Source: Naegleria gruberi (lineage: Eukaryota). From it: a DNA stretch of 64,000 nucleotides. This document shows, piece by piece, positions 21,991 through 45,504 of the stretch. The translations under genes were made by a program, and so were the position numbers. Below the pieces are notes generated by a model that was not told the origin of the DNA, did not search any database, and saw only the letters and a list, made by a program, of their open reading frames with translations. How positions within the stretch are numbered: the stretch's first letter is position 1; each line of letters begins with the position of its first letter. The stretch is from the NCBI GenBank assembly GCA_000004985.1, contig GG738897.1; one strand, 5' to 3'.

Positions 21991-22283
21991 CTATTTGAAA
22001 TATTTAAGAGAAAGTAATTGAGATGCTGAAGGTCTTTGATTTGCATCTTTTTCTAACATTTTCAAAACTATTTCAATCAATTCGTCCGAATATTCGCAAT
22101 GAGCAGATTCTTTCATTTGATTCTTCAATATTTTGATTGCATTCTCCGCTTGATTTCCCATTAGCAAGTTACTAATCGAAGTTGCCAAGTCATTGGTCAT
22201 GATTTGATAAATTGAAATACCCAATGAGAAAATATCCGTATTATATGAATATGAACTTCCAAGTGCAACTTCAGGACTCATAT
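21991..22283 (-). CDS. receptor-like Ser/Thr kinase gene copy 1, exon 4 (kinase C-lobe end, stop included)
   Basis: The exon encodes ..SPEVALGSSYSYNTDIFSLGISIYQ... It joins exon 3 through a 47-nt GTAAGT..AG intron (22284-22330). Phase is consistent with ..GTPL|Y|MSPEV. Confidence 0.7.
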
Positions 22284-22330
22284 CTGAATAGTTTAGTTTA
22301 GTTTGGGTAATGAAAAATTATAATACTTAC

Positions 22331-24351
22331 AAAGTGGAGTTCCAGCATAGGATTGACCTGTCATTTCTTGATACTTTTTGGCTAATCCAAAATCTGCCAA
22401 TACAATGTCAATATTGTCGCTTGTCATTTTCTTAATAAAAATATTTGTTTGCTTAATATCTCTGTGAATAATGTGCATTTCTTCATGTACATATTTCAAT
22501 GCATTCAACATTTGTTTCAATATTTGCTTGACAATCTTTTCACTGCAATTTTCTTGTTTCAATTTTGTTAAATCTCCCAATTCAAAATAATCCATGTCAA
22601 TAATCAATAAATTGTCATTTGTAATGAAATAATCATTAATTTTGATAATATTGGAATGGTTGATATGATTCAATTGAGATGCTTCTTTCATAATTGTATT
22701 CAAATCTGTCAATGTTTCAAATTTAACAAGTTTGATTGCTTTCAATTTGTTTTTCTTTAAATCTGTCACTTTGTAAACACTTCCAAATGCTCCTTGTCCA
22801 ATTCTTGTAATGTTTGAATATCTGGAGAATGGATTTATCATATCTGAGCCAACAGAAGATCCAGCAGATGAGGAAATAATCATTGAACTAGACGAAAGGA
22901 AAGTTGTTTCGGATAATTCAACATTTCCTGTGTCCAATTTAGCAATTTCAAAGTCCTTCTTTTTCTTTTTTGAGAAACACACGACTATTACAATAATTAA
23001 TATCACAACTATTAGTAAAATCAATAAAACCCCAACAATCGGTATCACAATAGCTACTATCAAAACTGTAGAATCAATTATTGACTGACTTTTGAGTTCA
23101 CAAAATTGACCTTCAAATCCAATCTTACATTGACAAACATCAATATCAGAACATTGTCCATTTCCATTACAAACATTTTCACTTGATGCCAATGTTCCAT
23201 TACAACTCAATTTGGAATCACATGTACTATTCCAAGAATTGTAAGTGTAGTTTCTTCCACAATATGGAATAATCTTTCGAATATAAGCTCTAGCATCAAT
23301 GAAAAAGATTTCACCCGTACTTTCATCGTAATCCACTTGTCTTGCAAACGTTGAAAAGATTGAATAAGTTCCAAATCCATCTCCATTGAATTTTGGGGAT
23401 GCAACTCTTGATCCAGCAATATCCAGCAATAAACCGCTCCGTTTCTGATACATTCGAACAAGAGAAGTTCCACTACCATCCAAAATAATTATATCTCCAT
23501 TCTTTTTCACATAGAAAGCAGAGGGATTATCGATCGATGATTGGAGGGCTGGTAGTTTATCACCTGAATAGCCCTGAATTGAATTTCCAACCAAAGTTCT
23601 TAAATAATAGGTGCCTTCAGATAGTTTTTCAATTCTTCTAATGGTAGCTTGTGTACTTAAATATATGTAACCACTATCATAGAAAATATTTGATATTACA
23701 CCTGGAAATGTCACATTACTCATGATTCCATCATCAGAAATGAGACCATTGTTTGAAAATGTAATATCTATTGACATTGTTTTAGTTGTTTGGCTGTATC
23801 TGTAAATTGCTGAATCCAAGGCGATTAGCAAATCACCAGTCGTATCCTCAACTGTCAATCCATTAATTAAATTAAATTGTGGACATGGAGAATCAACTGC
23901 ATTAATTCCAGTCACGAATGATCCACACACTGTTGATCCAATAACAGTTTCATAATTCATAGTGTCTGGATCGATTCGAATAAATCTACATGTATCCTTA
24001 ATATAGATTTTTCTATCAAATTTTGAGAACACTCCTTGAGCCTTTGCGGTGCCGAGTTGTGCATTGAAAGTAAAATAGGGTGATTTAACTGAAGCAAGTG
24101 GAGTTGTTAACAGTGAGCTACTTAAGGTGGTAGACTTGCCAGTAGTTTCATCAAATTTCTTCAAAGTTCTCATATCCATATAGTAGCTCACTTTCTTTGA
24201 TGCATCTCTCATTAACATTAACGGAGTTAAAGTTCTTGAAGCTGGACTTAGTCCTGCAATTGTGGAAACTCTTCCATTCGAAATTTCACTCAAATGATAT
24301 TGGTTTGTCACAAGAATTCTGGAATCTTGTTTGACAGCTCTTGGTAAATAT
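22331..24351 (-). CDS. receptor-like Ser/Thr kinase gene copy 1, exon 3 (NHL-like repeats, EGF-like Cys module, TM helix, kinase N-lobe and catalytic loop)
   Basis: EGF-like module: CNGNGQCSDIDVCQCKIGFEGQFCE. TM segment: VLIVAIVIPIVGVLLILLIVVILIIVIVV. Kinase motifs: GQGAFGSVYKV, HRDIKQTNIFI, DFGLAKK. An upstream 66-nt GTAAGT..AG intron (24352-24417) joins it to exon 2. Confidence 0.7.
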
Positions 24352-24417
24352 CTACAGTTCCATCATTAAGGCAGGAATTATTCGAATTTTCCCGAATATT
24401 AAAAGAATTATACTTAC

Positions 24418-25509
24418 AGAGCTGAGCTTTCGACTGGAATATTCTCACCATTGAATCCATAAACATAGACGATTGTGTTTGAAACATTAAGATGATCCAA
24501 TCCTCCAATTTTCTTCAATGTAAAACTTTCTAATTGAAAATCATAAAGTTGACCCATATTAAAAAAAAACAAATTTCTATCATTTTTTTGAAATCCATTA
24601 AATGTCAAAGATGTTGGCATTGGCGTGCTGAAAACTAACATTGATCCATTCTTAAAGTCAACATACTCATACAGAGTATTCAATGAACCTGAATATAAAA
24701 ATAAGGAATTAGAATCAGGATATCTGATATTTGGAATAGCAACAATTTGATCAAGATATCCATTTGGAATTGGAATTATTAATTGGTATAAAACTGTAGA
24801 TTTTTGTAAAATACTGATTAGATACTCAGAAGTTCTTAAATAAATTGTAGAATTGTCGAAAGAATCACCAAGTACATCAATCGCACTTGAATAAATTGGA
24901 GATTTGATTATTAAAGTCAAGTTTTGAGTTTCCACATTGAAATTGTAAAGTGATGTATCTAAATTAGTGAAAATCAAAACATCACCATTTCCAATATGGA
25001 TTGAATTGGCGACTAGCATGTAAAAACGCTGTGGAATGTTGGCCGTGTATTTGATTAATCTTTCACAACCCAATAAAGTGGTCATTTTTCCATTTGAAAC
25101 CTTTCGTAAATAATATGCTCTGTCAATAAAGTACAAGTCATTCTTATAGTAGAATGGGAATAAAACACTTCCTGTTGAATACATTTGGAGAGGTGAAATG
25201 TTTTCACCATTTGGATGATTAATTATTCCACCAGATAATGTGGAAACCATCTTGGTTTGTAAATCAATCTTTCGAATACAACTATTCGATTTATCTGCCA
25301 CTATTATCGCATTCTGAGTGATAATTAAAGAAGATGGTTCATAAAACTTGGTATTTAAAGAATCGAATAATTGATTATCACCATCGTATCCTTCTGAACC
25401 TCCAATAAGGATTTTAGTTTCATCTGAATTCAACAATTTCATTTGTATGAAATTATTACTTTGAGATGAAGTGTAAATTTCACCTCCATTCGAAACATAG
25501 ATACCATAT
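24418..25509 (-). CDS. receptor-like Ser/Thr kinase gene copy 1, exon 2 (NHL-like beta-propeller repeats)
   Basis: Continuous ORF 24414..25442 extended upstream to the AG acceptor. A 43-nt intron (25510-25552) with a GTAAGTG donor separates it from exon 1. Confidence 0.65.
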
Positions 25510-25552
25510 CTTTCGTATAATTATTAAACAAATCATTCAATTATTCACTTAC

Positions 25553-26376
25553 AAATTAGATTGAGCCACTCCTCCATCCACAATTCTATACATTCCATTT
25601 CCATCAATTGACTTGACTCTTTCTGCATCTGTAAAATAGACAATATCCTTATTTCCATTAGAAACAACGAATATATTCTTTGGAGATTGTAATTTCAAAA
25701 GCTTGGCATCTACACCATCATAATCACCATTTAAATAACCACCTCCTCCAATAATGGAAGTTTGTTTTGTGGAAATTTCGTATTTCTTGATTAGATTATT
25801 ATCTGTATCTGAAATGTAGGCAAATCCATTGGAAGAAACATAAACACCTCTTGGATTATTAAACGCATGTGCTATAGATGATGTTGTTCTTGTTCTATTC
25901 GAAACTATTCTAATCTTATTATTGAGTGAATCAGCAATAAACAAATCACCATTCAATGGATTCACAGATATAGCTGTCGGTGTATTCAATAATGTACCCA
26001 CAGCCTTCAATCCATCTCCATTGAATCCAGAAGTCACATATCCTGCATAAACTTCTGCATATTTATACATGTCAAAAATCCTAAAAACTACATGTCTATC
26101 AGCATCTGCAACAAAGACATCTCCATTCAAACCAGCACTCAAACCAGTAGGAGACAACATGTAGGCATATTTAGCCTCCACAATATCAAAATTATTGTTG
26201 AAACCTTCAAGTGTCTGTGTATAATAATTGACAGGTGTTGAAGATAGCGATTCCACAACCACCACCACCCCTGTAGACAACAACGCCATGAATACAAGCG
26301 CAAGGTATAAACATTGAATCCTCCTTGTTGTGCATAACATATTCTGACATCCATTGCTCAACCCACTTGTTACCAT
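25553..26376 (-). CDS. receptor-like Ser/Thr kinase gene copy 1, exon 1 (ATG, signal peptide, NHL-like repeats)
   Basis: ATG at 26376. The signal-peptide-like segment is MLCTTRRIQCLYLALVFMALLSTGVVVVV. NHL-type repeats follow (GDVFVADADRHVVFRIFD, GDLFIADSLNNKIRIV, GFAYISDTDNNLIKKY). The four spliced exons total ~1409 aa. Confidence 0.65.
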
Positions 26377-26674
26377 TTTTTTTCAGTGTTTGTTGAAATC
26401 CGCCAGAAATATTCGTTCACTGTCCAGTGAGAAATTTGTGGATTGGTGTAACACAACAAGAACACATTTCCAGCCAAGAAACGTAGAAAAATTTATTGCC
26501 TTGTTTAGAAAAAAAGTTCCACCTATGGCGCAAATTGATTCGTTCCTATGAAATTGGTTTAGCTATGGGGGAAAATGGTTTGCCTGTTGTTTGCCTTCTT
26601 GGTGTGTCTTCAAGCTATTCCTTTTTGCTTAAATTTTTATCAAAACCGGGCACGATAATGCAAAAAGGTGAATA

Positions 26675-26759
26675 CCCAATGCCAGGAATTGAACCTGGAT
26701 CACGTGAATACTGGATTTTACTCCAAGGAGACACTTGTCTTTCATTAGACGACACTGGG
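26675..26759 (-). tRNA. degenerate tRNA-like element (perfect acceptor and T-arm, but no G18G19 and no resolvable anticodon arm)
   Basis: Reverse complement: CCCAGTGTCGTCTAATGAAAGACAAGTGTCTCCTTGGAGTAAAATCCAGTATTCACGTGATCCAGGTTCAATTCCTGGCATTGGG. The acceptor is 7 bp (CCCAGTG/CATTGGG), the T-arm is CCAGG-TTCAATT-CCTGG, and the D-loop AATGAA lacks GG. It is 85 nt long. It could be an intron-containing tRNA precursor, or a tRNA-derived pseudogene or element. Confidence 0.35.
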
Positions 26760-26904
26760 TTGATATTTAGAAAAAATTGGAATGACCTATTTCTAATAAC
26801 AATCGGATATTGTTCATATTTTTGGTTTGCAATAATCAATCAATAGGCAAAAATGCAGTTTTGAAACTTCATTAAAATCTAACCTTAACAAACTAAAAGC
26901 GATA

Positions 26905-26975
26905 TGCATTAGCCGGGAGTCGAACCCGGGTCACCAGCTTGGAAGGCTGGTATGATACCGTTACACTACTAATGC
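26905..26975 (-). tRNA. tRNA-Gly(UCC)
   Basis: Reverse complement: GCATTAGTAGTGTAACGGTATCATACCAGCCTTCCAAGCTGGTGACCCGGGTTCGACTCCCGGCTAATGCA. It forms a clean cloverleaf with acceptor GCATTAG/CTAATGC, anticodon stem ACCAGC/GCTGGT, loop CTTCCAA (anticodon TCC), and T-loop TTCGACT. Confidence 0.85.
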
Positions 26976-27089
26976 TTCCTTTCTATATCTTATATTATGA
27001 GTATTGTATATTATATTTGACATGCTGTCTTATGTGATGAGAATGTAAAATTAATTTCAATAATTGAGTGTATTTCTTGCCAACAAGCC

Positions 27090-28439
27090 CTAACAATAAT
27101 CTTGTAAAGTAAATGAGTATTGGTTCTGGAAATTGGATCTAGCTAGTTTAGGAGCCATTAGCCTCAAGCTTTCCAATAATGATTGTCTCTTCTCTGTCGA
27201 AAAGGAGAAATTTCCAATTTCCAAATAATAAAGGTTTGGTAACATTCCACCACCAAACTTGACATTATCAACTTCGTCCACCAAAACTTGTCCGTATCCA
27301 CCATTCCTTCTCTCCACTCTAAAATACTCAATCTGAGTAAATTCACCTATTCTCGAATAGAAATCTCCAGATATTTGATGACAAACACCAAGGTTCAAAT
27401 GTTTCAACTTAGGAAGAGCCTTCAAGAATCCATACAATCCTTCATCATTAATAGAAACTCCTATATATCCATAGCCATGATCAACGTCAATAGAAATTTT
27501 TTCAAGATTAGGGCACATTCTAGTTATGTACATTAGTATATTTACATCACAATAGTTATGAAAAAATATTTCAAGATCCAACAAATTAGGTGTCAACTTG
27601 AGAATGTCAATAACAAATTTTTGAGATTGTACATCATCCAAAATACATCCAGACACAATTCTCAAGTTTTTCAATGAGGTCAGTAGGGGACACTCGTAGA
27701 AATCTTCATATTTTTCATCTGAAACAGAATCTCCAAAGCTGATCTCCAAATTCTCCACCAAATGACAAAATCTCAACACATAATACATATCACTCAATAA
27801 ATGCTCGAAATACAATTTTAAATTCTTCATAAAGAAACCAAGTGGGATTGTTATAATTTCCTTTTCCTTAACTATTCGTTTCTCCTCAATTGTTGACTCT
27901 CCCTCATTGCTAAAATTAAAGCCAACAGTTGGTTGCAACACAACAAATGGAATTTTTCTTTTTTCATAAATGGAATCAAAATTTTTAACCTCCATTTCGA
28001 AATAAACCTTAGCATTAACAAAATTAAAGAAATTAAATTCCAATTCTTCTGAAAGAAGCTTTAAATTTCCTCTATATTGTTCGGCTATTTTCGTGAACAA
28101 TGCAAAATTAAATGTACTAGCATCAATAACCACATTTTTGCAAATTCTCAATATTGTTGCAATTGACCAATATTCATGTTGATTTTGTACATATTCAACA
28201 GCCATTGGATACATGATCGAAATCCAATCACGAATGATTGAATAATTTCTCTGACAAGTCATTGAATAATTTATCAATCCACCAAACGTCAGAAATTTAA
28301 ACATGTAATTTAATTCATCACTCGCCAATCGATCGAGAATGATCTCGGAATGATCATTTGCAATTTTTGTTTTTTTAGCCATTTCCATATTTTTCAATGA
28401 AAAATCGGAAAGAGTTCCACTATGGGTGCGTTTCAACAT
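27090..28439 (-). CDS. F-box-like / leucine-rich-repeat protein
   Basis: ATG at 28439. The N-terminal segment (HSEIILDRLASDELNYMFKFLTFGGL) is F-box-like. The C-terminal half has LRR-like periodicity (LTSLKNLRIVSGC, LKLTPNLLDLEIF, LPKLKHLNLGVC). Confidence 0.4.
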   Translation of the reverse strand: MLKRTHSGTLSDFSLKNMEMAKKTKIANDHSEIILDRLASDELNYMFKFLTFGGLINYSMTCQRNYSIIRDWISIMYPMAVEYVQNQHEYWSIATILRICKNVVIDASTFNFALFTKIAEQYRGNLKLLSEELEFNFFNFVNAKVYFEMEVKNFDSIYEKRKIPFVVLQPTVGFNFSNEGESTIEEKRIVKEKEIITIPLGFFMKNLKLYFEHLLSDMYYVLRFCHLVENLEISFGDSVSDEKYEDFYECPLLTSLKNLRIVSGCILDDVQSQKFVIDILKLTPNLLDLEIFFHNYCDVNILMYITRMCPNLEKISIDVDHGYGYIGVSINDEGLYGFLKALPKLKHLNLGVCHQISGDFYSRIGEFTQIEYFRVERRNGGYGQVLVDEVDNVKFGGGMLPNLYYLEIGNFSFSTEKRQSLLESLRLMAPKLARSNFQNQYSFTLQDYC

Positions 28440-28691: not shown

Positions 28692-29801
28692 TTAATCTTC
28701 CATGATATCAACCTTTTCATTCAAGGCAGCATCAGAGGCAAGGGATTGCTCAACAAGTTCTTGACTTTCTGAAGGAGCAACTGTGGTTGTTTCTTCTTCT
28801 TCTTCTTGAGATGGAGCAGAACTTTCCTTTTGAGCAGTTTCTTCTTCTTCAGTTTCTTTAACAAGTCTGTGTCTCTTCAAATTGGACAAGTATTTGGATA
28901 AACTCATTGTGAAAACCATTTCTTCTTCATCTTCAGTAGCATCAAAGATAATGTAAACCTTAAAATCATTCTTAGCTTCACTCTTCTTACAAGCAATAAT
29001 ACCACTTTCACCTTCACCAATAATTACATAATCTTCATTCTTCTTCATCCACTCTGGACAATCATCATCGTTCAAGATAAAGATTTCATGCTTGATGAGA
29101 CCAAAGGAATGACCGCCAACATGCTTCTTAGTAATGGTGAACTTGATATCCTCTGGGAATTTAGCAGAGACGAAAGCATTAATTTCCTCTGGAATTGGTT
29201 CTTCATCTCTGTAGGCACGCTTTGGGAGATTGAGCTTAATAGTGGCACCCAACTTTTTCATCAATTCGAAATTCTTCTTAGATAATGGATAGGTCCATTC
29301 TTCCTTTTGCTTATTGGTAGTCTTCTTTTCAGCGGCAACATCTTCATCAGCCATTTGATTTTCAACATTTTCCTTATCTTCAGTTTCCTTCTTAGCAGCA
29401 GCCTTCTTCTTGTTCATCTTTTCAGTGAGTTTACTTCTCTTATCGAAGGAATTCTTACTTGCAGGCTTGGATGCCTTTTCTTCCAAGCTCTTATAATTGA
29501 CGTTCTTTCTTCTTCTGGTACCAGCAACAATGTTGGAAGAATCGAATTCACCACCAACTTTGACCATTCTCTTGGAACGATCCTTTTCCTTGGTTTTGAA
29601 ACCAGTCAAGAGCAAGACTCTCTTACCATTCTCATCTTCCACGAGTTTGGCTCCTGTAATCTTTTCCTTAAAATCACGAGTGCAGACTTGGAATTCTTTG
29701 GCAAGTTCTTTGACTGGAGCAAGTTCTTCATCAATTTCAGTTTCGTCGATTGGATTGTATCTCTTTTTACCGACGCTGATTACTTTAGTGGCCTTTGGCA
29801 T
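28692..29801 (-). CDS. Lys/Glu-rich, probably nuclear, hypothetical protein
   Basis: 369-aa ORF with an ATG at 29801. It has basic and acidic low-complexity segments around a conserved-looking core (EWTYPLSKKNFELMKKLGATIKLNLPKRAYRDEEP...GGHSFGLIKHEIFILNDDDCPEWMKK). E2F-like motifs lie in its upstream region. Confidence 0.5.
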   Translation of the reverse strand: MPKATKVISVGKKRYNPIDETEIDEELAPVKELAKEFQVCTRDFKEKITGAKLVEDENGKRVLLLTGFKTKEKDRSKRMVKVGGEFDSSNIVAGTRRRKNVNYKSLEEKASKPASKNSFDKRSKLTEKMNKKKAAAKKETEDKENVENQMADEDVAAEKKTTNKQKEEWTYPLSKKNFELMKKLGATIKLNLPKRAYRDEEPIPEEINAFVSAKFPEDIKFTITKKHVGGHSFGLIKHEIFILNDDDCPEWMKKNEDYVIIGEGESGIIACKKSEAKNDFKVYIIFDATEDEEEMVFTMSLSKYLSNLKRHRLVKETEEEETAQKESSAPSQEEEEETTTVAPSESQELVEQSLASDAALNEKVDIMED

Positions 29802-34952: not shown

Positions 34953-37900
34953 ATGTTTTTAAAACAATGGCTCAATAATAAGAGGAGCAACTCGATGAGT
35001 ACATCATCGTCATCGGGATCTATTAGTAATATGGTGAATACCAACAATAATCAGACAACAAATCCGAATAACAGTTACTCATCAGGGCTGGATAATTTGG
35101 GATTTTTAGATCAGCAAACATCACCCAATTCGCCTCCATCCTCCTCCTCATCACAATTTACCACATCCTCCCAATCACCAACTTCCAATAATCAAAACAA
35201 AGGAGTTTCAGGAGTTGTTGGTGATCAATCTCCTCTCCTTTTCAATCCTCCGAATAATAATAGCACAATTAATAATGAAAAATCAACAATTATGAACACG
35301 TCCACTTACTATACCTACACTGTCCAATCAGAAGAGGGTCTCCCTTCCATGGCCCAACATCACCATTTAGATGATGTTTCATCATCGGATGAGAATTTTC
35401 AATCACCACGAATGGTTCCTCTTCATGTCAATACTACACCTTCTTCATCAAACAATCATCATCAACACTCTGCATCGAGAATGATGCAACCGAATAGAGA
35501 CTCACCACTGATTCATCCCCACCATCATGCCATTCGTGTCTTTCCCTATGATTTACGAAAATTCAATAATAATCAACAACAACAACACATTTCTCATCAT
35601 CAATATTCACAATTATCAACAACACCAAATCAACAACAACATGGCAGTGAAGAATTAGCAGTATCAGTCTCTCCAATTCCTTCCAACCTGATGATGAATA
35701 TACCAGAGATTGGATTAAGTCCAATCACTTCAGGACCCAACAAACTTCTCAATTCTCCACATTCACCAATTGATGATGATCATAATAATGGTGGTGGAAT
35801 TTCACCAAAGAGTGATGAAGAAGTTTCTGTCTCTCTCTTCTCAGGGGATATTTCCAAGGCAGTTCATGATGAGTATTATCCATCACCACAAAAGCTTTCG
35901 GCCTCTCGGTTGTTACCTTCTGAACCACCATCACCAACTGCAACGACCACTAGGCTGGGTGATTCATTCAATAGTCAAATGCATTCACCATCTGTACGTT
36001 CGACAGCTTCAAATGTTTCCACTTCGAGAAGGAGAGCCAACAGTAACAGTTCAAACATTTCATCAACAATGTCCTTCCAGAATCCACAACAAAATGCTCC
36101 ATTTATTGTCTATTCTTTGAAGAATCAATCATTGGGATTTATGAATACTGCCATTTCACATCATTGTTCGAATAGAAATGCCAATCATCACACCCATAAT
36201 TTGTGTGAGGAGTGTACAAATTGTAATATTGCAAGAAATCATACTAGTCCATTTTCTGAAGTGTCAGTCATTAATATGATTGATCCAAATTCATCTCTTG
36301 GTATTGGAGAAGTGAATAATATTAATAAGGTTATATTATTGTACGATAGAAATGTAAATTTAGATACAAGTTATGCTTGTTTGACTCCATACTTTTTCAA
36401 TTATTGGAATTATGCTAATTTTTGTAATAGAAATGGAGAGGAGGTTGGAATTCCGAGAATACCTCCACATCAATACTTTTCCCTGAATGAGGAATTTATG
36501 TTTTATAGATGCAGACCTTTGAAAGTTGCTCCTAATAATATGGTTAGCTCTCCAATGCTGACATGCTATGAGGATGGTAGAATTTCAGTGTGGGATGCTA
36601 CCAATTCTAAACGAGTGGCCAACCTGAACGGTCACAGATTGACAATTACTTGTGCAGTACCAATTTTTGCTCAGGGAACTCTCATTTCTCAATCATCAGA
36701 AGATTCCAATCTCTATTTCCAATATACACCATTTGCTCAATTCTTATTGACTGGATCTGGAGATAAGTCCATTAAATTGTGGGATATTTCAGCAATTTGG
36801 AGCACATCAGGTCAGGCACCTACATTCAATCTGAATCCAGTGAGAACCATGAACATTCACGAATCGAGTGTTAGATGTATTGAACTACTCAATGATGGAT
36901 CCCCAAGATTTTGCTCTGCCTCCAATGATGGTAAAATTTGTTTGTGGAATTGGTTCACTGGAGAGCTCCTCCAAGTGATCAATAGAAGAGAGGATGGATG
37001 CATTTCCAATATGTTTATCATGAATTCCATGTTTTACAATGATATGTCATTCATTGAAAGGACGAACAATACCATCGTTTCAACATGCTCCAACAAGCCA
37101 GATTTATTCATCTATGATTTTGAAAAGATTGAAGATGTTATTGAGGAATCACCAACTATAACCGATGATTCGTCTAGCAATGACTTTTTCTACAAGTTAA
37201 TTGATGAAGAATTGGTACCTTCAGCAACAACAGAGCCAAGTAGTAGTGCATCCGTAGTAACACAACCACCTATTACATCCAACAAACCAAAAAATATCAT
37301 TTCCAGTCTAAAGATTCTCAATATTTTCTCAATGCCTTCCACTTCATCAAATGCTGATAACATTTCACAAAAATCAGATAATTCCTCTCATTCATCCATG
37401 ACTCAATCAATGAATCAATCGATGAACCAATCGCCAAACCAATCTAATCCAACCCTTCCTGCTAAACAGTCAGAGTTTGATTACATTATTAGCACTGTAA
37501 ATAATTTTGGAGAATTAACCTTTTGGAAAACAGCTCAGATCGATTCTGAAGCTAAATGGAACAAGTTGTGCTCTTGCAAGAAGATTCGTGAAATTTTGGA
37601 ATCCAAATACTCATCAAACGAACTCACCTATCAAGCATGTATTCAGTTGGTGGTGAATAATCACTTCTTGTTGGTTTCTCTCGCAAACCACTTGTTCATT
37701 TTCGATATTGCTGACATTCTCATGCACACAGAAGGTAATCAGGAATGTAAATTCTTATTGGAACAGGCAGAGGCTCACTCATCCACCATCACTACCATGT
37801 GTACTCTTCATTATGGTCATATTATTGCCACTGGTGCAGAGGATGGCACGATTCGATTATGGGACACTGGCAAACTGTTGATATCTAATAATCCATACGT

Positions 37901-38624
37901 ACCAACTCCAAATCCAGAAACTGCCTCAACAACAGCCAGCAGTATTTTACATCCTATTGAAAGTATTTTTATTGGAACAAGTAAGAATGTACAAACAGCA
38001 TTTTTGAGAAATATTGCCACATTACAAATGCACAGCCAAGCAATTGTCTCTCTACAATCACTCAATGAATATGCATTTATTAGTGTGGCAAAGGGTGAAC
38101 CATTTGCCTTAATGTGGAAAGATTCGAGAATGGAGAAGAAGCTCAGAGGATATTACGCATTCCATTATGGATTAGGAAATACTGACATGCTCAGTAGTGG
38201 ATCAGCCGGAGGATACAATGTGCCAAACATGCTCTCACTCATGCTTGGTGAGAATAATAGTGTTGCTACAGCACTCAATGTGACACCATTTGCCTATCTC
38301 AGTATGGTTAATAATAGACAAAGAAGTAATAGTGGTATGAGAAAGGTTCAATCTGTGATTGGATTCAAGAATCCAGGATATGGTAAAGCACTATCACCGA
38401 AGAGTTCCAGTACTGAGGATTTGACAGTCAATACGCAAAGAGAAAAGGCAGCTATGAGGGCATTTACTACTGATGATGAAAGATTGAACAAGGATGATGA
38501 AGCTTCTGAGGCTTTAGAATCTCAACAACAGGATGATTACTGTGAAACGTGTACAAGTGAAGTTTCAACTCCTGTACAACATTCACGTACAGACACGGTA
38601 GATAGTGAAAAACTTTTAGAATAA
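34953..38624 (+). CDS. large WD40-repeat protein with a low-complexity N-terminal half
   Basis: 1223 aa with an ATG start. WD40 signatures are present (LLTGSGDKSIKLWDI, CSASNDGKICLWNW, ATGAEDGTIRLWDTGKL). Confidence 0.7.
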   Translation: MFLKQWLNNKRSNSMSTSSSSGSISNMVNTNNNQTTNPNNSYSSGLDNLGFLDQQTSPNSPPSSSSSQFTTSSQSPTSNNQNKGVSGVVGDQSPLLFNPPNNNSTINNEKSTIMNTSTYYTYTVQSEEGLPSMAQHHHLDDVSSSDENFQSPRMVPLHVNTTPSSSNNHHQHSASRMMQPNRDSPLIHPHHHAIRVFPYDLRKFNNNQQQQHISHHQYSQLSTTPNQQQHGSEELAVSVSPIPSNLMMNIPEIGLSPITSGPNKLLNSPHSPIDDDHNNGGGISPKSDEEVSVSLFSGDISKAVHDEYYPSPQKLSASRLLPSEPPSPTATTTRLGDSFNSQMHSPSVRSTASNVSTSRRRANSNSSNISSTMSFQNPQQNAPFIVYSLKNQSLGFMNTAISHHCSNRNANHHTHNLCEECTNCNIARNHTSPFSEVSVINMIDPNSSLGIGEVNNINKVILLYDRNVNLDTSYACLTPYFFNYWNYANFCNRNGEEVGIPRIPPHQYFSLNEEFMFYRCRPLKVAPNNMVSSPMLTCYEDGRISVWDATNSKRVANLNGHRLTITCAVPIFAQGTLISQSSEDSNLYFQYTPFAQFLLTGSGDKSIKLWDISAIWSTSGQAPTFNLNPVRTMNIHESSVRCIELLNDGSPRFCSASNDGKICLWNWFTGELLQVINRREDGCISNMFIMNSMFYNDMSFIERTNNTIVSTCSNKPDLFIYDFEKIEDVIEESPTITDDSSSNDFFYKLIDEELVPSATTEPSSSASVVTQPPITSNKPKNIISSLKILNIFSMPSTSSNADNISQKSDNSSHSSMTQSMNQSMNQSPNQSNPTLPAKQSEFDYIISTVNNFGELTFWKTAQIDSEAKWNKLCSCKKIREILESKYSSNELTYQACIQLVVNNHFLLVSLANHLFIFDIADILMHTEGNQECKFLLEQAEAHSSTITTMCTLHYGHIIATGAEDGTIRLWDTGKLLISNNPYVPTPNPETASTTASSILHPIESIFIGTSKNVQTAFLRNIATLQMHSQAIVSLQSLNEYAFISVAKGEPFALMWKDSRMEKKLRGYYAFHYGLGNTDMLSSGSAGGYNVPNMLSLMLGENNSVATALNVTPFAYLSMVNNRQRSNSGMRKVQSVIGFKNPGYGKALSPKSSSTEDLTVNTQREKAAMRAFTTDDERLNKDDEASEALESQQQDDYCETCTSEVSTPVQHSRTDTVDSEKLLE

Positions 38625-38695
38625 ACCAATTCATAATGGAATATTTTGGCCTTTGAAAACATGATTTTAGTTGAGAAAAGAGCAAAAATTCAGAT

Positions 38696-38769
38696 ACCCT
38701 CCACCAGGAGTTGAACCTGGATCTTGCGAATGAGCCAGTCGCATATTCTAACCATTGAACCACAGAGGG
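38696..38769 (-). tRNA. tRNA-like gene (Glu/Gln-type scaffold) with an atypical 9-nt anticodon loop CTGGCTCAT; paralog of 45505..45578
   Basis: Reverse complement: CCCTCTGTGGTTCAATGGTTAGAATATGCGACTGGCTCATTCGCAAGATCCAGGTTCAACTCCTGGTGGAGGGT. The acceptor is 7 bp, the D-arm is GTTC/AATGGTTA/GAAT with GG, the anticodon stem is TGCGA/TCGCA enclosing 9 nt, and the T-arm is CCAGG-TTCAACT-CCTGG. The 3' trailer ATCTGAATTTTTG resembles the trailer of its paralog. Confidence 0.55.
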
Positions 38770-39136
38770 AATTAATGAAACAACCAAAAATTCTCAAAAT
38801 CACAATCTGGAATTGTACAACAAAACTATTTACTGATGCATTTATTTTGAAACACAAAACATCGAAATTAGAGGAAGCTTTTCAAAAGATCAAAAATCGA
38901 TGCCAAGTTATGTCTACTGTTAAAGAATTGGCAAACAATGAAAATTTTATCAATGATACCAAGTCCATAATTAACTCCTTATTTTGCAGTAGGTCTTTAA
39001 CTGTTTTTTTGCTTCCTTATTTTGTCAGTTCTTTATTGGTGAATATTTGTACAAGTTGCCTTTTGAAAAAAAAATAGGAAAAAAGTAAAGGATTTACTGA
39101 AAACAAACTAAAAATAATAAATAAACTATTTTCTGA

Positions 39137-39416
39137 TTATTTGAAGTAAGGCATTTGGAGAATCTGCCTTGCACTTGGACGAGTTTCCTGATTCCTGTCC
39201 AACATTTTAATCACAATTTCCATTAATTCATTCGAATATTGTTGTTCAGCTTCCATTTGCTTTGTGAGAATTGACACAGCATTTGCTGATTGATTTCCCA
39301 TCAACAAGTTTCCAATAGAAATTGTTTCATCCTTTGTCATGATCTGATAAATTGAAACTCCCAATGAGAAAATATCGGTATTGAAAGAATAACAACTTCC
39401 CAATGCAATTTCAGGA
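39137..39416 (-). CDS. receptor-like Ser/Thr kinase gene copy 2, exon 5 (kinase C-terminus, stop included)
   Basis: The exon encodes ..SPEIALGSCYSFNTDIFSLGVSIYQIM... A 50-nt GTAAGC..AG intron (39417-39466) joins it to exon 4. Confidence 0.7.
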
Positions 39417-39466
39417 CTATTTCAATATCATGGTCAATTAAGTTGTGAAATTTAACATTTGCTTAC

Positions 39467-41554
39467 CTCATAAAAAGTGGAGTTCCAGCATAGGAATGAC
39501 CTTTCATTTCTTGATGCTTTTTAGCTAAGCCAAAATCAGCCAAAACAACTTCAATATCATTTCCAGAAAGATTTCGAATAAAAATATTTGAAGGTTTGAT
39601 GTCTCTGTGAATGATTGATAATTCTGAATGGACATAGTCAAGAGCACTCAGTACTTGTTTCATTATCTTTCGAATAATATCTTCAGAACATGTTTCTTTC
39701 TTTGTAAATCTTGTCAAATCGCCATTTTCAAAATAATCCATATCCATACAAAGTAAATTATCTTTTGTAATGAAATAATCATTGATTATCAAAATATTTG
39801 GATGTCTAATATTACTAAATTGTGATGCCTCTTTCATAATCGTATTCAAATCTGTAAATGATTCAAATTTCACAAACTTGACAGCTTTGATTTTGTTTCC
39901 ACATTTGGTATCTGTCACTTTGAATACACTTCCAAATGCACCTTGTCCAATTCTGACCATATTAATATATCTTGAAAGGACATCTTCATTATCTGACACA
40001 TTGGATCCCATAGACGATGAAATAATTACAGAACTGGATGGGAAGTCTGACATTTCAACAATTGTGGCATTTGCTATTTCATTTCTCTTCACTGCCTTCT
40101 TCTTCTTCATAGATAGTAGAATGATAACCACCACAACAATTATCACTATTATTAAGCCAATTCCAACAATTGGAATCACAATTGCAACCACCAAAACAGT
40201 TGTTGATTGATCGTTGGCTAAATTATCGAGTGAAGATCTTTCACAAAATTGACCATCGAAACCAGTAATACAGTTACAAATATCCAATCCAACACAACTT
40301 CCCTTTCCATTACAACTTTTTGAATCTGAAGAACTAGTTCCATTACAAGTGATTGGTTGACATTTGTCACCATAGAAACCACTCAAGCAATCGCATGTAT
40401 TATTGAAAGAATTGAATTGTGCTCCTCCTTCACAAACAGGATATAGCTTTCTAATTAGTGAAGTTACACCATTGGTTGACACTGTTTCAAGAAAAAGAGT
40501 TTCGTCCGATTTCTCATTTACATCAATAGTATAACCAAAACCAATAAAACTTGTTTCCACTCCCTTCAGGTCTCCATTGAAATAGGTACTCTGCTCTCTT
40601 GGTTTTCCTGCAATGGTCACTAACAATCCAGTTTTTTTCACATACTTTCTAATAATATTATTACCAGAATCCAATATAATTATATCACCATTCTCTTTCA
40701 CATAAAATGACTTAATTTGAGACAATTTAGACGAAACAGCAGGTAGATTATCACCACTATATCCATCAGTCCCAGTTCCAACAATACTCTTCAAATAGAA
40801 CGAACCATTCTGAAGTCGTTCCAAAACTCGAATGGTGTTTGCTGTGCAAAAGTAATGCAGGTCATCACTAATGGAATGAGAGGAACCAATGACACCAATT
40901 CGTTTGTCATTTTCTACAATGATTCCATCTTCAGATTCGAAAGGTGAATTGAGTGGATTCCAAAAGAATACACGAATCATACCTGAACTCTTTTCAATCT
41001 TTCCAAAAAAATCTGGATAACAAATGTAAATATCGCCATTCTTGGGATTTACAGAAAGACCTTTAGTACTTTGCTTTCCCAATGGAGAATTCAAAGCTGG
41101 AATGTCAGGAATCACTGTTCCACATTCCTTTCCTGCCACTTTCTGATATTTCAATGTTTTTGGATCAATTTGAATAATTCTGCAATAATCTGCAACATAA
41201 ATCATATTATCATAGAGAGAGAATACCATTTTAACATCAACTCTTGGAAAAAGTGCAAACATAAAGGAATCTAAAAGTACTAAAGAAAAGGAAAGGAAAG
41301 GTTTGACAGCTGGCAATAGAGAGGTAATTTCACCAGTTTTCTCATCATACTTCTTCAATACATTCTTATCTATTATATAGATTAGATTTTGATTTGGATC
41401 TCTGCAAAAGGAATTCATGTCCATACCAAGTAAGTTTGAGCTAGGATTGCTGCCAACTATAGTTTTGGCAATTCCATCAACTATTGTGTAAATGTAGGAT
41501 GATACTGTCGCAATGTAAATGACTCCATTATGTGCATAAATTGAATTAATCGAC
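39467..41554 (-). CDS. receptor-like Ser/Thr kinase gene copy 2, exon 4 (NHL-like repeats, EGF-like module, TM, kinase domain)
   Basis: EGF-like module: CNGKGSCVGLDICNCITGFDGQFCE. TM segment: VLVVAIVIPIVGIGLIIVIIVVVVIIL. Kinase motifs: GQGAFGSVFKV, HRDIKPSNIFI, DFGLAKK. The ORF is open from the acceptor at 41554. A 40-nt intron (41555-41594) lies upstream. Confidence 0.7.
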
Positions 41555-41594
41555 CTTTTAAGGTTTCGAATAAAAAATTTTCAAAGAAACTTAC

Positions 41595-42650
41595 ATTGCT
41601 GATTGAGTGGCATTAACATTCTCACCACTATATCCATCAAAATCAACATAAGTTCCAGAATATGTACCTCCATCAATTCCACCAACCTTTCTTAAACTAA
41701 GATCATCCAAATTTGCTTCATAAATTCTGTAACCATTCGCAACATAAATCTTTCCATATATGGAATCATAGGCAACACGTGAAATTGAAACTGGAAATTC
41801 AATCCAGTCCGAAGATTGATTTTTCCATTCCACTTTTATAAGTATTCCAGATGAAATATAATATAAAGTATTGTTTAGGATGGAAAACTCATTTACACTG
41901 TACTCAATCTTACTTGAATCTTGTAAAGTTTCGTTTTGATATTTGTAAATGCCATCTGAACTCACAAATCCAATGTACATTGTGCCATTATCAAAGGAAT
42001 TTCCAAAACCAGTAATAGAGCTAATTGGATTACTGTAATTAATTTGGAAATATCTCATCCTTAATGTATCCAAATTAAGAACGTGTAAATCGTGGTATCC
42101 AGAAATAACCAAATCTCCATTTGGAAAGCAAAATAAACTTAAAATTGATTTGAAAGTTCTCGTTGGTGAAGTTTCTGTTTTCAATTTTGAACTCACTCCA
42201 AAGACAGTCTTGATTAGTCCATCTATTTTCGAAACCTTTCTAATAATCAAATGTTGTTCCACAAAATAAAGTTCATCATTATATATGAATGGTTTGTACA
42301 ATACATTGACTTGTGAAATCTCAAATCTTGGCAAGTCCTCTCCATAGGGATGATTAATGAATCCACCACTGAATGTTGACACAATCTTATTGGAAACATC
42401 AATCTTTCGAATACAATTATTGGATTTGTCCACAAGATAGACCATTGTATTTTTCACAATCAAAGAACCAGGTTCATAAAATCGAACATTCGAATAAGAA
42501 TTAACTAAATCATCTCCTTCATATCCAAACGAATCTTTTTCACCAATTATTGTTTTGGTTGAACTATCAATTAAAGAATTCATTTGTAGAAAATGTGAAT
42601 TGGACGACGAGGTCCAAATTTCATTATTGGACGAAACAAATATTCCATTT
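41595..42650 (-). CDS. receptor-like Ser/Thr kinase gene copy 2, exon 3 (NHL-like repeats)
   Basis: ORF 41591..42583 extended upstream to the ..tattag acceptor. It is homologous to exon 2 of copy 1 (YGIYVSNGGEIYTSSQSNNFIQMKLLNSD vs NGIFVSSNNEIWTSSSNSHFLQMNSLIDS). Confidence 0.65.
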
Positions 42651-42673
42651 CTAATAATTATGGGATAGTCAAT

Positions 42674-44412
42674 GTGGTAGACTTAAACAGAAAGTTCATT
42701 TTCTGAATCAGCAAAGGACCTTCTTATCCAGCAAAGGCCCCTCTCATCCAGCAAGTCACCAACCAATAAAACACCGAATAATGCTTTTTCAGCAAATAAC
42801 TCCTTCTTAATTTCATAAATTACTGATTTAGCAAAGCTTTCTTAATTATCCAAAGATTTGTTCCATTGCAGCAAATTCAATAAAGAAGAATATAAAGTGC
42901 TGATTTATTCTAAACCTGATTATTACGGATTAACAACTTTTATATATTTTGATGTATACATATTATAGTTGCTGTTACTATTAACTTAAGCATTGTGGCT
43001 TCAAGTTGGCAAACTGTAACAACAATCTAAGGACGTGAAAAATATTCAAAAGTGTATTCTTCATAACAAAACATAATCTAAATTAGTATCAACATCTTTA
43101 TTTGAGTTGTTTTATTTGCCATGTGATCCGACTATAAAAGTGACTGTATATGAAGAATCCACCTTAATTTGTAATTTTTTGTTCTGCAACAGCAAATCAA
43201 CGGAAAATATTAATGAAAAGACATCATGTACTAATTTACTATGTTATTTGATGAAATCAAGTGGAGAATGCATAAAACAGATTTTGATACAAGAAAACAC
43301 AATGATGATAATAAAAATATAATTTTATTTAATTATTGAAATAATTCAAGGTGGAAAATCAGCAAGATTTCCGACCTTGAAATTTACCTTGTTGGAAAAT
43401 TCACCATTAGTGAATTTTATTGATGGTTCGATGATGATGACCATTAAGATATTTACCATAATGATCGGAAATGAACTTGTTGATGATATTGATGATAAAA
43501 GATATGATGAAGAGAAAATTCCACAACTCTATGAATACTAAGTGGAAAAATTCCAACTCTCTTGATGGTGATATTAGACATCCCTACTAATGATACTATG
43601 TTGTTGAAATTCTATCATCATGATGAAAATATATGGTGAATGATGAATACACCACCAACAAGGTAAAAACTCAAAATATCCAAAAACTATTATTCGGAGT
43701 GTTGTTGATGATGTATTTGAATAGTACTATTCGAAGAAAGTTTGGAAGATGATGAAGTACATGTTGAGTTATTGCATATGTATAATTTCAAAATATACAT
43801 GAAGCAAACTTGATGAAATGAGAAGATGAATTCCTGCTATTGATACTGGTGATACTATAGAGTATTGCCAACAATCCCTAATTGAAGAAATTCCTAATGA
43901 ACAAGTAAATCTGCTGATGAGGATGATATTATGTGAAATTTGAAATTTCACCCAATAACAAGTACTAACAGAGACTCCACTTGCTTAAATTACTATTAAT
44001 ACAATAATAAATATACTGTGATGATGAACTCCGGCTTAATGATGATGTTTGGAAGTGTGAAATTTCCGATGATAGAAAACCACTATAATTCATTCCGAGA
44101 AGAAGCACCACCATAAAATATTACTATTATTACTATTGGTGAGATGTAGCCCAGCCACTATAATTGAAGTATTCCAAAATGATGATGAGTTGATTGAAAT
44201 AAATACCAGTGATGATGTAGAGGTATTTTTTTTACTTTCTTCAATTGCTAAATGGGAACAATTTCGTGGCTTATTCAGTAAAATTTTGCCAATTTACTGT
44301 TTATTTGCTGATTAAGTATGCGCGGATTCAGTAAAAATGATAAGCACATGGCTTGCTGAAACAGACCATCCTTTGCTGTTTTTTTTGAAAAATTTGCTGA
44401 AAAAGTACTACG
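42674..44412. mobile_element. ~1.74-kb non-autonomous DNA-transposon-like insertion inside intron 2 of kinase copy 2, flanked by a 9-bp direct repeat ATAGTCAAT (plus strand) and carrying subterminal inverted CAGCAAAGG repeats
   Basis: The homologous intron in copy 1 is 43 nt; here it is ~1.8 kb (42651-44450). ATAGTCAAT occurs at ~42665-42673 and ~44413-44421. The left end has CAGCAAAGGACC / CAGCAAAGGCCC / CAGCAAGTC at 20-bp spacing plus further CAGCAAA copies. The right end has the reverse-complement CCTTTGCTG / TTGCTGA copies. There is no long ORF. The interior holds a TGATGA-rich degenerate repeat (~43380-44230) and repeated CACTATAATT..ATTCC units. Confidence 0.45.
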
Positions 44413-44450
44413 CATAGTCAATTAGTTTGAGTTTCTGAAAAAACACTTAC

Positions 44451-44709
44451 AACTTGGTTTCAAGTTCTGAAATTGCTATCCTTCGATATTTACCATTCTT
44501 ATCAATGGATTTGACTCTTTCGTCATCTGTGAAATAAACAGTGTCATCTTTCCCATTCGAAACTACATGAATATTCTTTGGAGATCGAAGAATTATTGAA
44601 TTGGCCTCAACATTATCGTACGATCCATCTAGATATCCATTTCCACCAGCGATTGTTGTCAAAATCTTGCTGCCAATGTCATATTTCTTTATCACGTTAT
44701 TTCCAGAAT
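44451..44709 (-). CDS. receptor-like Ser/Thr kinase gene copy 2, exon 2
   Basis: The exon lies between a 42-nt GTAAGT..AG intron (44710-44751) and a GTAAGTG donor at 44450. It encodes DSGNNVIKKYDIGSKILTTIAGGNGYLDGSYDNV..., which are NHL-like repeats. Confidence 0.65.
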
Positions 44710-44751
44710 CTTTTGACATGTTTCAAAGAAATTTAGAAATATTTAACTTAC

Positions 44752-45310
44752 CTGCAATGTAGAGTATGTTATTATTGGAAACATACACTCCCAATGGTTT
44801 GTTGAATGCAAAAGGTAGAGAAGAAACCAAATTCGTCTCAGCAGAAACTAGACGAATCTTATCATTATTCGTGTCAGCAATCCACAAATCACCATTAATC
44901 GCCACACTCAACGAAGAAGGTGAATTAAACAAGGTTTGTTTCACATCATATCCATCCTGATTAAAACCAAGTCCTAACCCTCCAAAAACAATCATACTTT
45001 CGTTTGGAAAAATCTTGAAAATTAATCCTCTCACACAATCAGACACGAAAATTTCATCATTATTTCCAGAGCAGATGCCACATGGAGCTTTTAGAAAGGC
45101 ATGTTTGGCAGTGAATGTTCTGTCAACATCTTGACCATTGCCTTTGTATCCTGTTAGTGTTTGTAGTTGGTAAGTTTCGGCTGCTTTAGTTTGAAAGAAT
45201 TTGTCTGAACTGCTTTGAAAGAGAAGAAACAGTAAACAGAGCAGTATCATCAATGTGTTTAGTTGCATTTTTTTGAAAAGTTTCTCCTTGTTGACAATCC
45301 TGACACACAT
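44752..45310 (-). CDS. receptor-like Ser/Thr kinase gene copy 2, exon 1 (signal peptide, NHL-like repeats)
   Basis: The ORF track starts at TTG (45361). In-frame ATGs lie at 45310 and 45268; the latter begins the signal-peptide-like MQLNTLMILLCLLFLLF. The exon ends with ..YIAG|GTAAGT. Confidence 0.6.
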
Positions 45311-45504
45311 CAAACTCCTCTGATTGAGAGCTAGTTGATGACTTTTAGCATAATCTTGCAATAATAGAAATTCCCCGATTCCAACTAGAATAGTTATAAT
45401 GGAATCTTCAGGAGTTGGAGTTGTGGTTCCAATTTGTGGGTATAAAAATAACTTGGTTTACTACTCAACTGCGTGACAAAAGTTTTTTTTTCAAATTAAT
45501 ACTT

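Follow-up and report, generated by a model that had tools for sequence, protein, structure and literature searches.

Two genes that lie 13 kb apart on the same strand and share one domain architecture raise the question whether they arose by a recent duplication of the segment that carries them. Such a pair is present in a stretch of 64,000 nucleotides (nt) from the Naegleria gruberi contig GG738897.1 (assembly GCA_000004985.1), hereafter called the window. Minus-strand open reading frame (ORF) blocks at 21991-26376 (copy 1) and at 39137-45361 (copy 2) specify, once spliced, two predicted membrane receptors with NHL-type beta-propeller repeats outside the cell and a Ser/Thr kinase inside. Our analysis leads us to the view that the two loci are very probably anciently diverged paralogs in a Naegleria-wide family of type-I receptor Ser/Thr kinases.

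The two sets of ORF blocks are collinear homologs. In tblastn searches the E values per block ranged from 1e-38 to 1e-150; the blocks of copy 1, taken as queries, each found their counterpart in the region of copy 2 (4e-57 to 2e-150). Identity between the spliced proteins amounts to 44-45% across about 1350 aligned columns, so that the shared ancestry of the two genes, already proposed in an earlier sequence-only reading of this DNA, extends over their whole length. The conservation is uneven, with 39% identity in the ectodomain, 47% in the transmembrane (TM) and juxtamembrane part and 67% in the kinase. On the DNA level sensitive blastn detected about 60% identity, which is confined to the coding sequence (CDS; 22052-25524 versus 39198-42661 and 25584-26175 versus 44482-45109). 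Beyond the CDS the same search found no homology between the flanks of the two copies save for a 50-nt match in the T-arm of a tRNA.

These values bear directly on the sequence-only reading, which had explained the pair by a recent segmental duplication of the kinase gene together with an adjacent tRNA-like gene, giving two young copies. The common strand, the distance of 13 kb, the same architecture, two identical intron positions and a tRNA-like element 240-300 nt upstream of either start codon would all fit such an event. However, proteins that are only 44% identical and a DNA similarity of about 60% that ends with the CDS do not look like young copies. The earlier reading had itself named unrelated flanks as evidence against a duplicated segment, and the flanks are unrelated except for the T-arm match. 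Moreover, the tRNA-like elements upstream of the two genes differ in type and have opposite orientations, and the last intron has a different position in each lineage, each position being conserved in further members of the family (see below).

Comparison with other members of the family points in the same direction. Since the window itself is from N. gruberi, the models P0001, P0002, P0107 and P0108 of this organism are paralogs of the two genes; they reside on scaffolds of 339,217, 261,328, 441,990 and 424,055 bp, respectively, the scaffold of the window being 326,913 bp long. Over the full length copy 1 and P0001 are 54% identical, as are copy 2 and P0002, versus 44% for the two neighbours. 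The kinase domain of copy 1 is 87% identical to P0108 and 79% to P0107, again higher than its 67% identity to copy 2. A neighbour-joining tree (640 columns, 500 bootstraps) grouped copy 1 with P0001 and copy 2 with the environmental protein P0106, each with 100% bootstrap support, and copy 2 with P0002 with 54%. Because of these identities and the bootstrapped tree we assign the two neighbours to different subgroups of an older radiation. Copy 1 is thus closer to paralogs on other scaffolds than to the gene next to it, and we regard a recent segmental duplication as very improbable. The family would rather have diversified through older duplications, the products of which are now dispersed over many scaffolds, and the two copies would lie close together either through a tandem duplication of long ago or by chance.

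The spliced gene models were built from the raw sequence, and the junctions were placed using the reading frame, the GTAAGT/AG sites and the paralog proteins (Table 1). Copy 1 has four exons coding for 1409 amino acids, and its introns measure 43 nt (phase 2), 66 nt (phase 2) and 47 nt (phase 1); copy 2 has five exons coding for 1399 amino acids, with introns of 42, 1800, 40 and 50 nt in phases 1, 2, 2 and 2. Both spliced CDSs are open from end to end. All introns follow the pattern GTAAGT/GTAAGC...AG and measure 40-66 nt, the sole exception in length being the 1800-nt intron of copy 2.

Table 1. Positions of the features discussed in the text (numbering of the window; a slash marks a splice junction)
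Feature	Position	Strand	Description
Copy 1 exon 1	25553..26376	-	ATG, signal peptide, first NHL blades (Pfam NHL 172-199); ends tt/GTAAGTG, phase 2
Copy 1 intron 1	25510..25552	-	43 nt, GTAAGT...AAG; junction QSNL/YGIYVSNGGEIY agrees with paralogs P0001 and P0002
Copy 1 exon 2	24418..25509	-	End of propeller 1 and propeller 2; blade-like repeats; paralog model all-beta
Copy 1 intron 2	24352..24417	-	66 nt, phase 2
Copy 1 exon 3	22331..24351	-	Propeller 3, EGF-like module, TM helix (~22977-23072), Ser-rich juxtamembrane segment, kinase subdomains I-VIII
Copy 1 intron 3	22284..22330	-	47 nt, phase 1 (GTPL-T/AT-MSPE); splicing gives contiguous Pkinase profile 1-263
Copy 1 exon 4	21991..22283	-	Kinase C-lobe, TAG stop
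Copy 2 exon 1	44752..45268	-	ATG at 45268 (alternative 45310), signal peptide MQLNTLMILLCLLFLLFQ, NHL blades
Copy 2 extra intron	44710..44751	-	42 nt, phase 1; holds in-frame TGA dividing ORFs 44723-45361 and 44447-44719
Copy 2 exon 2	44451..44709	-	Ends tt/GTAAGTG, phase 2; junction equals copy 1 intron 1
Copy 2 intron 2	42651..44450	-	1800 nt; position homologous to 43-nt intron 1 of copy 1
Putative 1740-nt insertion	42674..44413		Inside copy 2 intron 2; bounded by 9-bp direct repeat ATTGACTAT
Copy 2 exon 3	41595..42650	-	Propeller 2
Copy 2 intron 3	41555..41594	-	40 nt, phase 2; position as copy 1 intron 2; also in environmental contig L002
Copy 2 exon 4	39467..41554	-	Propeller 3, EGF-like modules, TM helix (~40111-40203), juxtamembrane segment, kinase subdomains I-VIII
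Copy 2 intron 4	39417..39466	-	50 nt, phase 2 (FM-AG/T-PE); position also used in L002
Copy 2 exon 5	39137..39416	-	Kinase C-lobe, TAA stop
tRNA-Gly(UCC), canonical	26905..26975	-	ARAGORN; Rfam tRNA 69.3 bits; 529 nt upstream of copy 1 ATG
Degenerate tRNA-like element	26674..26759	-	Rfam tRNA 37.8 bits (permissive search); 297 nt upstream of copy 1 ATG
Atypical tRNA-type gene	38696..38769	-	9-nt anticodon loop CU-GGCUC-AU; 368 nt downstream of copy 2 stop codon
Atypical tRNA-type gene	45505..45578	+	9-nt anticodon loop CU-GAUCC-AC; 237 nt upstream of copy 2 ATG, divergent
ORF	28692-29801		Identical to N. gruberi NEG-M protein EFC39767.1
ORF	30427-33309		Identical to N. gruberi NEG-M protein EFC39695.1
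ORF	34953-38624		Identical to N. gruberi NEG-M protein EFC39697.1

It could be argued that the ORF blocks are not exons at all but separate small genes for secreted NHL proteins and a membrane kinase, and prokaryote-style gene callers indeed divide environmental contigs into such blocks. Yet this arrangement would cut the kinase domain in the middle of subdomain VIII (GTPL/YMSPE), and the match to all 263 positions of the Pkinase profile is obtained only once the blocks are spliced, when two partial matches become complete ones (190 and 185 bits). The blocks also lack properly placed start codons, each gap carries a GTAAGT...AG pair in the correct phase, and full-length paralogs of 1397-1435 amino acids occur in three Naegleria species. 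The separation into small genes is therefore hardly credible. The paralog proteins read straight through the junctions as we placed them, and the environmental contig L003, which is 96.6% identical to copy 1, has no indels in the exons and introns and four in the 3′ flank; in the two introns compared we count, taken together, one substitution in 113 bases. As judged from sequence and paralogs, both multi-exon gene models are real, and each set of ORF blocks makes up the exons of a single gene. The gene extents given in the sequence-only reading hold with one correction: position 45361, where copy 2 had been started, is the TTG boundary of an ORF, and its start codon is likely the ATG at 45268 or alternatively that at 45310.

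The intron positions are in part shared. Introns 1 and 2 of copy 1 coincide with introns 2 and 3 of copy 2, both in the aligned codon that they interrupt and in their phase (2). The additional 42-nt intron that had been suspected within the region of copy 2 corresponding to exon 1 of copy 1 is supported: its deletion removes the in-frame stop codon and restores the paralog-shared sequence YIADSGNNVIKKY, the counterparts of which are YISDTDNNLIKKY in copy 1 and YIADTQNNLIKKY in P0002. This intron would have been gained later by copy 2. For the last intron, on the other hand, the suggested conservation of position and phase could not be maintained. In copy 1 it lies in phase 1 inside the Tyr codon of GTPL-Y-MSPE after the first base, whereas in copy 2 it lies in phase 2 after ATGAG (ATGAG/T), 7 nt downstream of the position in copy 1. 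Either position recurs in other members. That of copy 1 is recognizable from the read-through 'GTPLCK...' in P0001, P0110, P0111, P0112 and P0159, and that of copy 2 from 'GTPLFMR...' in P0106, with confirmation on the DNA level in contig L002. Because P0109, a more distant environmental member (L001, 9857-11818), is without an intron at the GTPL-YMSPE site, the last intron with its two alternative positions seems to be specific to the core N. gruberi-type subgroup.

The 1800-nt intron of copy 2, which the sequence-only reading did not bring up although its model of the gene requires it, sits where copy 1 has 43 nt and uses the same tt/GTAAGTG donor. It contains two copies of the 9-mer ATTGACTAT, one at 44414-44422 (28 nt inside the 5′ end of the intron) and the other at 42665-42673 (14 nt inside the 3′ end). 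A shared 9-mer was attained in 239 of 5000 shuffles (p ~0.05). The ends show a weak inverted similarity with a local score of 17 versus 11.1±1.9, attained in 12 of 1000 shuffles (p ~0.01); both values are modest. Removal of the 1740-nt segment along with one copy of the repeat leaves an intron of 51 nt, which is typical of both genes. From these sequence features it is most likely that an insertion of about 1.74 kb has enlarged the intron and left the reading frame undamaged; the inserted element is possibly a non-autonomous DNA transposon with terminal inverted repeats. A codon-usage score, which discriminated poorly even on true exons, gave no sign of coding capacity in the intron. A tblastx search against the window revealed no homolog, none of 12 stop-free fragments had a Pfam match, and a second copy of the sequence was not found within the window.

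We also considered that copy 2 has been broken by the insertion. In this case one part (45268-44451) would code for a short secreted NHL fragment and the rest would be a remnant that lacks a promoter, the locus being a young pseudogene or two separate genes and not a single spliced gene. The gap is about 30-40 times as long as all other introns of both genes, it resembles an insertion with its direct repeat, and the 11 residues before the donor (RIAISELETKL) diverge from the family consensus VVDGxSPQSNL. Against a broken gene speak the intact donor and in-phase AG acceptor, the position of the putative insertion wholly within the ancestral intron (of which 37 nt remain 5′ and 14 nt remain 3′ of it), the 1140 downstream codons, which are all open, and the catalytic motifs, which are all intact; a young insertion, though, would show no decay. 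On balance we consider it unlikely that copy 2 is broken and continue with a five-exon gene.

Both spliced proteins begin with a hydrophobic N-terminus and contain one further hydrophobic stretch of about 31 residues that is followed by KKKKK or KKKK; the signal peptide and the TM helix were read from the sequence. By this topology both proteins are predicted type-I single-pass membrane receptors. In the extracellular part the Pfam NHL profile scored 59.7 bits in copy 1 and 57.7 bits in copy 2 (cutoff 20), and TEN_NHL reached 37-39 bits in both (cutoff 27.1). Exon 2 of copy 1 gave no match in the Pfam scan. Counted by eye, the ectodomain of about 1000 residues has about 18 NHL-type blade units, which probably form three six-bladed beta-propellers. 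An EGF-type pattern of six cysteines (C-x-C-x5-C-x5-C-x-C-x8-C), e.g., CNGTLASSENVCNGNGQCSDIDVCQCKIGFEGQFC, was read in both proteins. The profiles EGF_2, EGF_Teneurin and EGF_TEN stayed below the Pfam gathering score in the two window proteins, and in the family member P0109 EGF_2 reached 34 bits (cutoff 22.1). Around residue 1010 (~23215-23245) copy 1 lacks 10 residues (CLSGFYGDKC-type); in copy 2, P0001 and P0002 these residues complete the first EGF-like module by forming its latter half. The number of intact EGF modules is hence one in copy 1, as compared with about two. The architecture described in the sequence-only reading (signal peptide, NHL repeats, EGF-like module, TM helix and a kinase with HRDIKxxN) is the one we find in both copies, with Pfam support for the NHL repeats and the kinase and with the EGF part suggested by the cysteine pattern.

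For a structural view the ectodomain of the paralog P0001 was modelled with AlphaFold from the family alignment; the underlying gene model is without the N-terminal ~100 residues. The model is all-beta with about 16 four-stranded blades and EGF, and its mean predicted local distance difference test (pLDDT) value is 63.6, being high at residues 30-170 and 580-850; the first and the last propellers are well predicted. In a Foldseek search the model retrieved tandem propeller/EGF ectodomains, namely those of LRP2, LRP4, LRP6 and ROS1, the Bacteroides sensor BT4663 and a teneurin-like protein. The TM-scores were low (~0.2), so the matches support the type of module and not a specific arrangement.

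The intracellular kinase is complete in both proteins, matching the Pkinase profile of 263 positions with 190.5 bits (1-263) in copy 1 and 185.4 bits (3-263) in copy 2. The motifs GQGAFGSV, AIK/AVK, MKEAS, HRDIKQTN/HRDIKPSN, ADFG and MSPE are all present, by which the domain is an active-type eukaryotic Ser/Thr kinase of the RD type with a complete catalytic set. A receptor tyrosine kinase (RTK) is ruled out by the HRDIK(Q/P)(T/S)N loop, by the Pfam scores (Pkinase 190 bits, PK_Tyr_Ser-Thr 110 bits) and by the Ser/Thr kinases among the relatives in the PDB. The best solved relatives are CDPK, STE20 (STK24/25), NEK2 and PAK with E values of 1e-24 to 1e-29; the domain is equidistant from them, and with these relatives a kinase of the IRAK/Pelle or TKL type is ruled out as well.

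Just N-terminal of the kinase both proteins have a Ser-rich juxtamembrane motif, SS-x-IISSS-x-GS...SD (about residues 1110-1125 in copy 1 and 1100-1115 in copy 2), which is also seen in P0001, P0002, P0107 and P0108. In TGF-beta type I receptors the GS region is a regulatory phosphorylation box, and by analogy the motif is reminiscent of such a box.

The family was collected by profile searches and exhaustive HMMER searches and comprises at least 15 gene models in N. gruberi. Besides those already mentioned these include P0154, P0155, P0156, P0158, P0166 (EFC41150.1), P0167 (EFC41556.1), P0168 (EFC39508.1), P0170 (EFC45409.1) and P0171 (EFC41830.1). Further members are C9374_002334, C9374_012036, C9374_010803 and C9374_010785 in N. 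lovaniensis and FDP41_013523 and FDP41_004619 in N. fowleri. NHL repeats, in some cases also EGF modules, followed by a C-terminal Pkinase domain were found in P0163, P0164, P0167, P0170 and P0308. Beyond Naegleria and a few unassigned environmental contigs the kinase matches do not exceed 35% identity, and the combination of NHL and kinase occurs there only in the reversed, bacterial PknD-like order, as in P0056 (Pkinase at residues 6-250, NHL at 611-830). A metagenome search with the kinase profile returned only generic kinases of at most 37% identity, the motifs IIHRD[IV]K[PQ] and LADFGLAK being too general. The family is lineage-specific and expanded at the level of the genus, as the earlier reading had supposed for the pair. 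All members are annotated merely as predicted or hypothetical proteins, and a literature search for Naegleria NHL proteins, receptor kinases or the kinome retrieved nothing relevant.

Four of the public N. gruberi models, which belong to paralog loci on other scaffolds, look wrong. In P0001 the last intron is read through at the end (GTPLCKFLHNWSI) and the C-lobe of the kinase is missing. The second EGF module has been left out of P0002, as has the TM helix, and the models P0107 and P0108 cover the kinase alone, beginning at the juxtamembrane motif with MIISSS. It is a practical point that several public models of the receptor-kinase family are truncated or mis-spliced. The environmental contigs allowed some additional observations. 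In metagenome PRJEB11402 contig L003 (ENA ERZ929261, 3681 nt) corresponds to window positions 21836-25503, and L002 from the same sample is just 71% identical to copy 2 (window 39140-42255); the sample contains either a close N. gruberi-group strain and a second species, or else L002 is a further paralog. The kinase gene is the sole match between L001 and the window, so no synteny was seen.

Comparison with L003 also gave a first indication of how the protein evolves. For exon 2 the ratio of nonsynonymous to synonymous substitution rates (dN/dS) amounts to 0.64 and for the ectodomain part of exon 3 to 0.96, versus 0.08 in the TM/juxtamembrane segment and likewise 0.08 in the kinase; the contrast between the ectodomain and the cytoplasmic part has a Fisher p of 0.004 with small counts. 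A near-neutral ectodomain together with a constrained cytoplasmic part is what one would expect of a sensor in which the surface that binds the ligand may change freely or is under pressure to do so, and points to ligand-driven diversification. By analogy with other receptor kinases, the propellers would bind an extracellular ligand and binding would shift the oligomeric state; trans-phosphorylation between the kinase domains, at the activation loop, the juxtamembrane Ser cluster or both, might then pass the signal into the cell.

How does this design compare with known receptors? PknD of Mycobacterium tuberculosis is also a single-pass membrane Ser/Thr kinase with an NHL beta-propeller sensor. 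But the topology is reversed: PknD starts with the kinase and ends with the propeller, whereas in the Naegleria proteins the signal peptide and the ectodomain come first and the kinase forms the C-terminal part; furthermore PknD has one propeller and no EGF module, as compared with about three propellers in the Naegleria proteins. Membership in the PknD family (NCBIfam NF009651) is ruled out by a score of 52.3 bits versus a cutoff of 839 and by the opposite domain order. PknD is an analogue of the Naegleria receptor kinases and not a member of their family.

The animal receptors LRP2, LRP4 and LRP6 and ROS1/Sevenless share tandem six-bladed propellers with EGF modules and the type-I topology, and ROS1 in addition has a cytoplasmic kinase. 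The LRP/ROS1 ectodomains were the top Foldseek matches to the P0001 ectodomain model, with E values of 1e-14 to 1e-21. Their propellers, however, are of the YWTD/LDL-receptor class B and not of the NHL type, and ROS1 is a tyrosine kinase whereas the Naegleria proteins carry the Ser/Thr signature HRDIKxxN. The likeness is one of convergent design, the type of module being alike and the arrangement not.

Teneurins combine an NHL propeller with EGF modules, matched here by TEN_NHL above its cutoff and by EGF_TEN/EGF_Teneurin below the gathering score; unlike the Naegleria proteins they are type-II proteins with the EGF modules before the NHL part, a YD shell and a toxin-like C-terminus, and they have no kinase. 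A teneurin identity is ruled out, as the window proteins have no YD or toxin domains and end in a kinase.

Animals (RTKs, TGF-beta receptors) and plants (receptor-like kinases, RLKs) are the lineages usually credited with the invention of single-pass receptor kinases. The plant RLK/Pelle kinases and the transmembrane kinases (TMKs) of Entamoeba are single-pass receptor families that have expanded within their own lineages, and in both the ectodomain evolves fast while the kinase is conserved, a pattern which the dN/dS contrast in Naegleria fits. Their ectodomains, in contrast to the NHL propellers, are leucine-rich repeat, lectin or CXXC-rich domains, and the best solved kinase relatives found here are CDPK, STE20, NEK and PAK and not IRAK/Pelle or TKL. 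The comparison points to an independent origin of the Naegleria receptor kinases. The closest known systems, PknD, LRP/ROS1 and the plant and Entamoeba receptor-like kinases, are analogues and not relatives.

The pair itself is ordinary gene-family biology. The family to which it belongs presents a third, apparently independent receptor-kinase design in the early-branching Discoba, with tandem NHL propellers, EGF modules and a generic Ser/Thr kinase. It spans the genus including the pathogen N. fowleri, bears on the question of how often and how easily receptor kinases originate, and nominates candidate surface-recognition molecules for the environmental and host sensing of Naegleria. One could go further and suppose that the triple NHL-propeller ectodomains are an independent Naegleria invention under diversifying selection and form a recognition system (for bacterial prey, giant viruses or other pathogens, or self and mating partners) rather than housekeeping sensors, and that at the same time the tRNA-type genes with a 9-nt anticodon loop next to copy 2 are functional RNA polymerase III (Pol III) elements, i.e., boundary elements or expanded-anticodon tRNAs, and not dead pseudogenes. 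Taken together we regard this proposal as speculative and rather doubtful.

Several points weigh against our view of the locus as two old paralogs of a receptor-kinase family. The trees are neighbour-joining trees only, and some of the N. gruberi paralog models used are incomplete or wrongly spliced. For copy 2, the introns of 42 and 1800 nt are inferred from the sequence. The number of three propellers derives from a medium-confidence paralog model and from repeats counted by eye. The word-indexed protein search is non-exhaustive, P0108 having been missed in one search and P0002 in another, and the family count may include fragments or one gene from two assemblies. Finally, the signalling mechanism is argued from other receptor kinases, and ligand, localisation and kinase activity are predictions.

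The tRNA-type neighbours are present as first described, with tRNA-Gly and a degenerate element before copy 1 and an atypical pair bracketing copy 2 (ARAGORN, Rfam). In the degenerate element at 26674-26759 the anticodon loop is extended by 20 inserted nt and two pairs of the anticodon stem are mismatched; its fold has a z-score of -3.5. It is missed by the gathering-mode filters of Rfam and by ARAGORN with default settings, and is found by ARAGORN at a relaxed threshold. Its T-arm is nearly identical to the T-arms of the two elements with a 9-nt loop.

These two elements (38696-38769 and 45505-45578) form a cloverleaf, score 51 and 55 bits, respectively, with the Rfam tRNA model, and constitute an inverted pair of 90 nt with 84% complementarity around copy 2. 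Both loops read CU-NNNNN-AY, in which positions 32, 33, 37 and 38 are canonical and five bases stand in the place of the anticodon. G-U pairs and one-sided changes preserve the stems. Each gene is equipped with a T-run terminator, and CUGAAUUUU follows both of them. With an anticodon loop of 9 nt and not 7 nt canonical tRNA genes are ruled out; the elements may be pseudogenes, tRNAs with an expanded anticodon, or Pol III elements that serve some other purpose. Scans for the 9-nt-loop tRNA-like pattern gave no match in metagenomes and none in viral sequences, and a literature search for natural 9-nt anticodon loops retrieved nothing relevant.

Three of the four intergenic regions that flank the two kinase genes are occupied by a tRNA-type gene. 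Given 5 occupied among about 30 regions of the window the hypergeometric p is ~0.009, and at the published genome-wide density (924 tRNA genes, or tDNAs) the binomial p is 8e-4, both tests being post hoc. These numbers, along with the inverted pair around copy 2, could be taken to mean that a functional or mechanistic tie exists between the tRNA-type genes and the kinase genes, the former serving for instance as Pol III-bound boundary elements on either side of copy 2 or as hot spots of recombination or insertion that aided the spread of the family. Apart from the post hoc nature of the tests, however, tDNAs cluster, and the elements differ between the two genes in type, distance and orientation and do not occupy equivalent positions. 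When the inverted pair was considered as a composite mobile unit, no target-site duplication was found outside it, and the one further family locus inspected, on the environmental contig L001, has no tRNA within 10 kb of the family member. The link is suggestive as a hypothesis, and an actual tie between the two kinds of genes appears unlikely to us.

The surroundings are those of an AT-rich region (~34% GC over the window) with about 30 genes and five or six tRNA-type genes. The encoded proteins contain poly-N/Q tracts, and the introns are very short with the pattern GTAAGT...AG. A tRNA-Ile(AAU) at 1324-1399 on the minus strand scores just 51 bits, and several pairs of its D, anticodon and T stems are non-canonical, as would suit a diverged tRNA or possibly a pseudo-tRNA.

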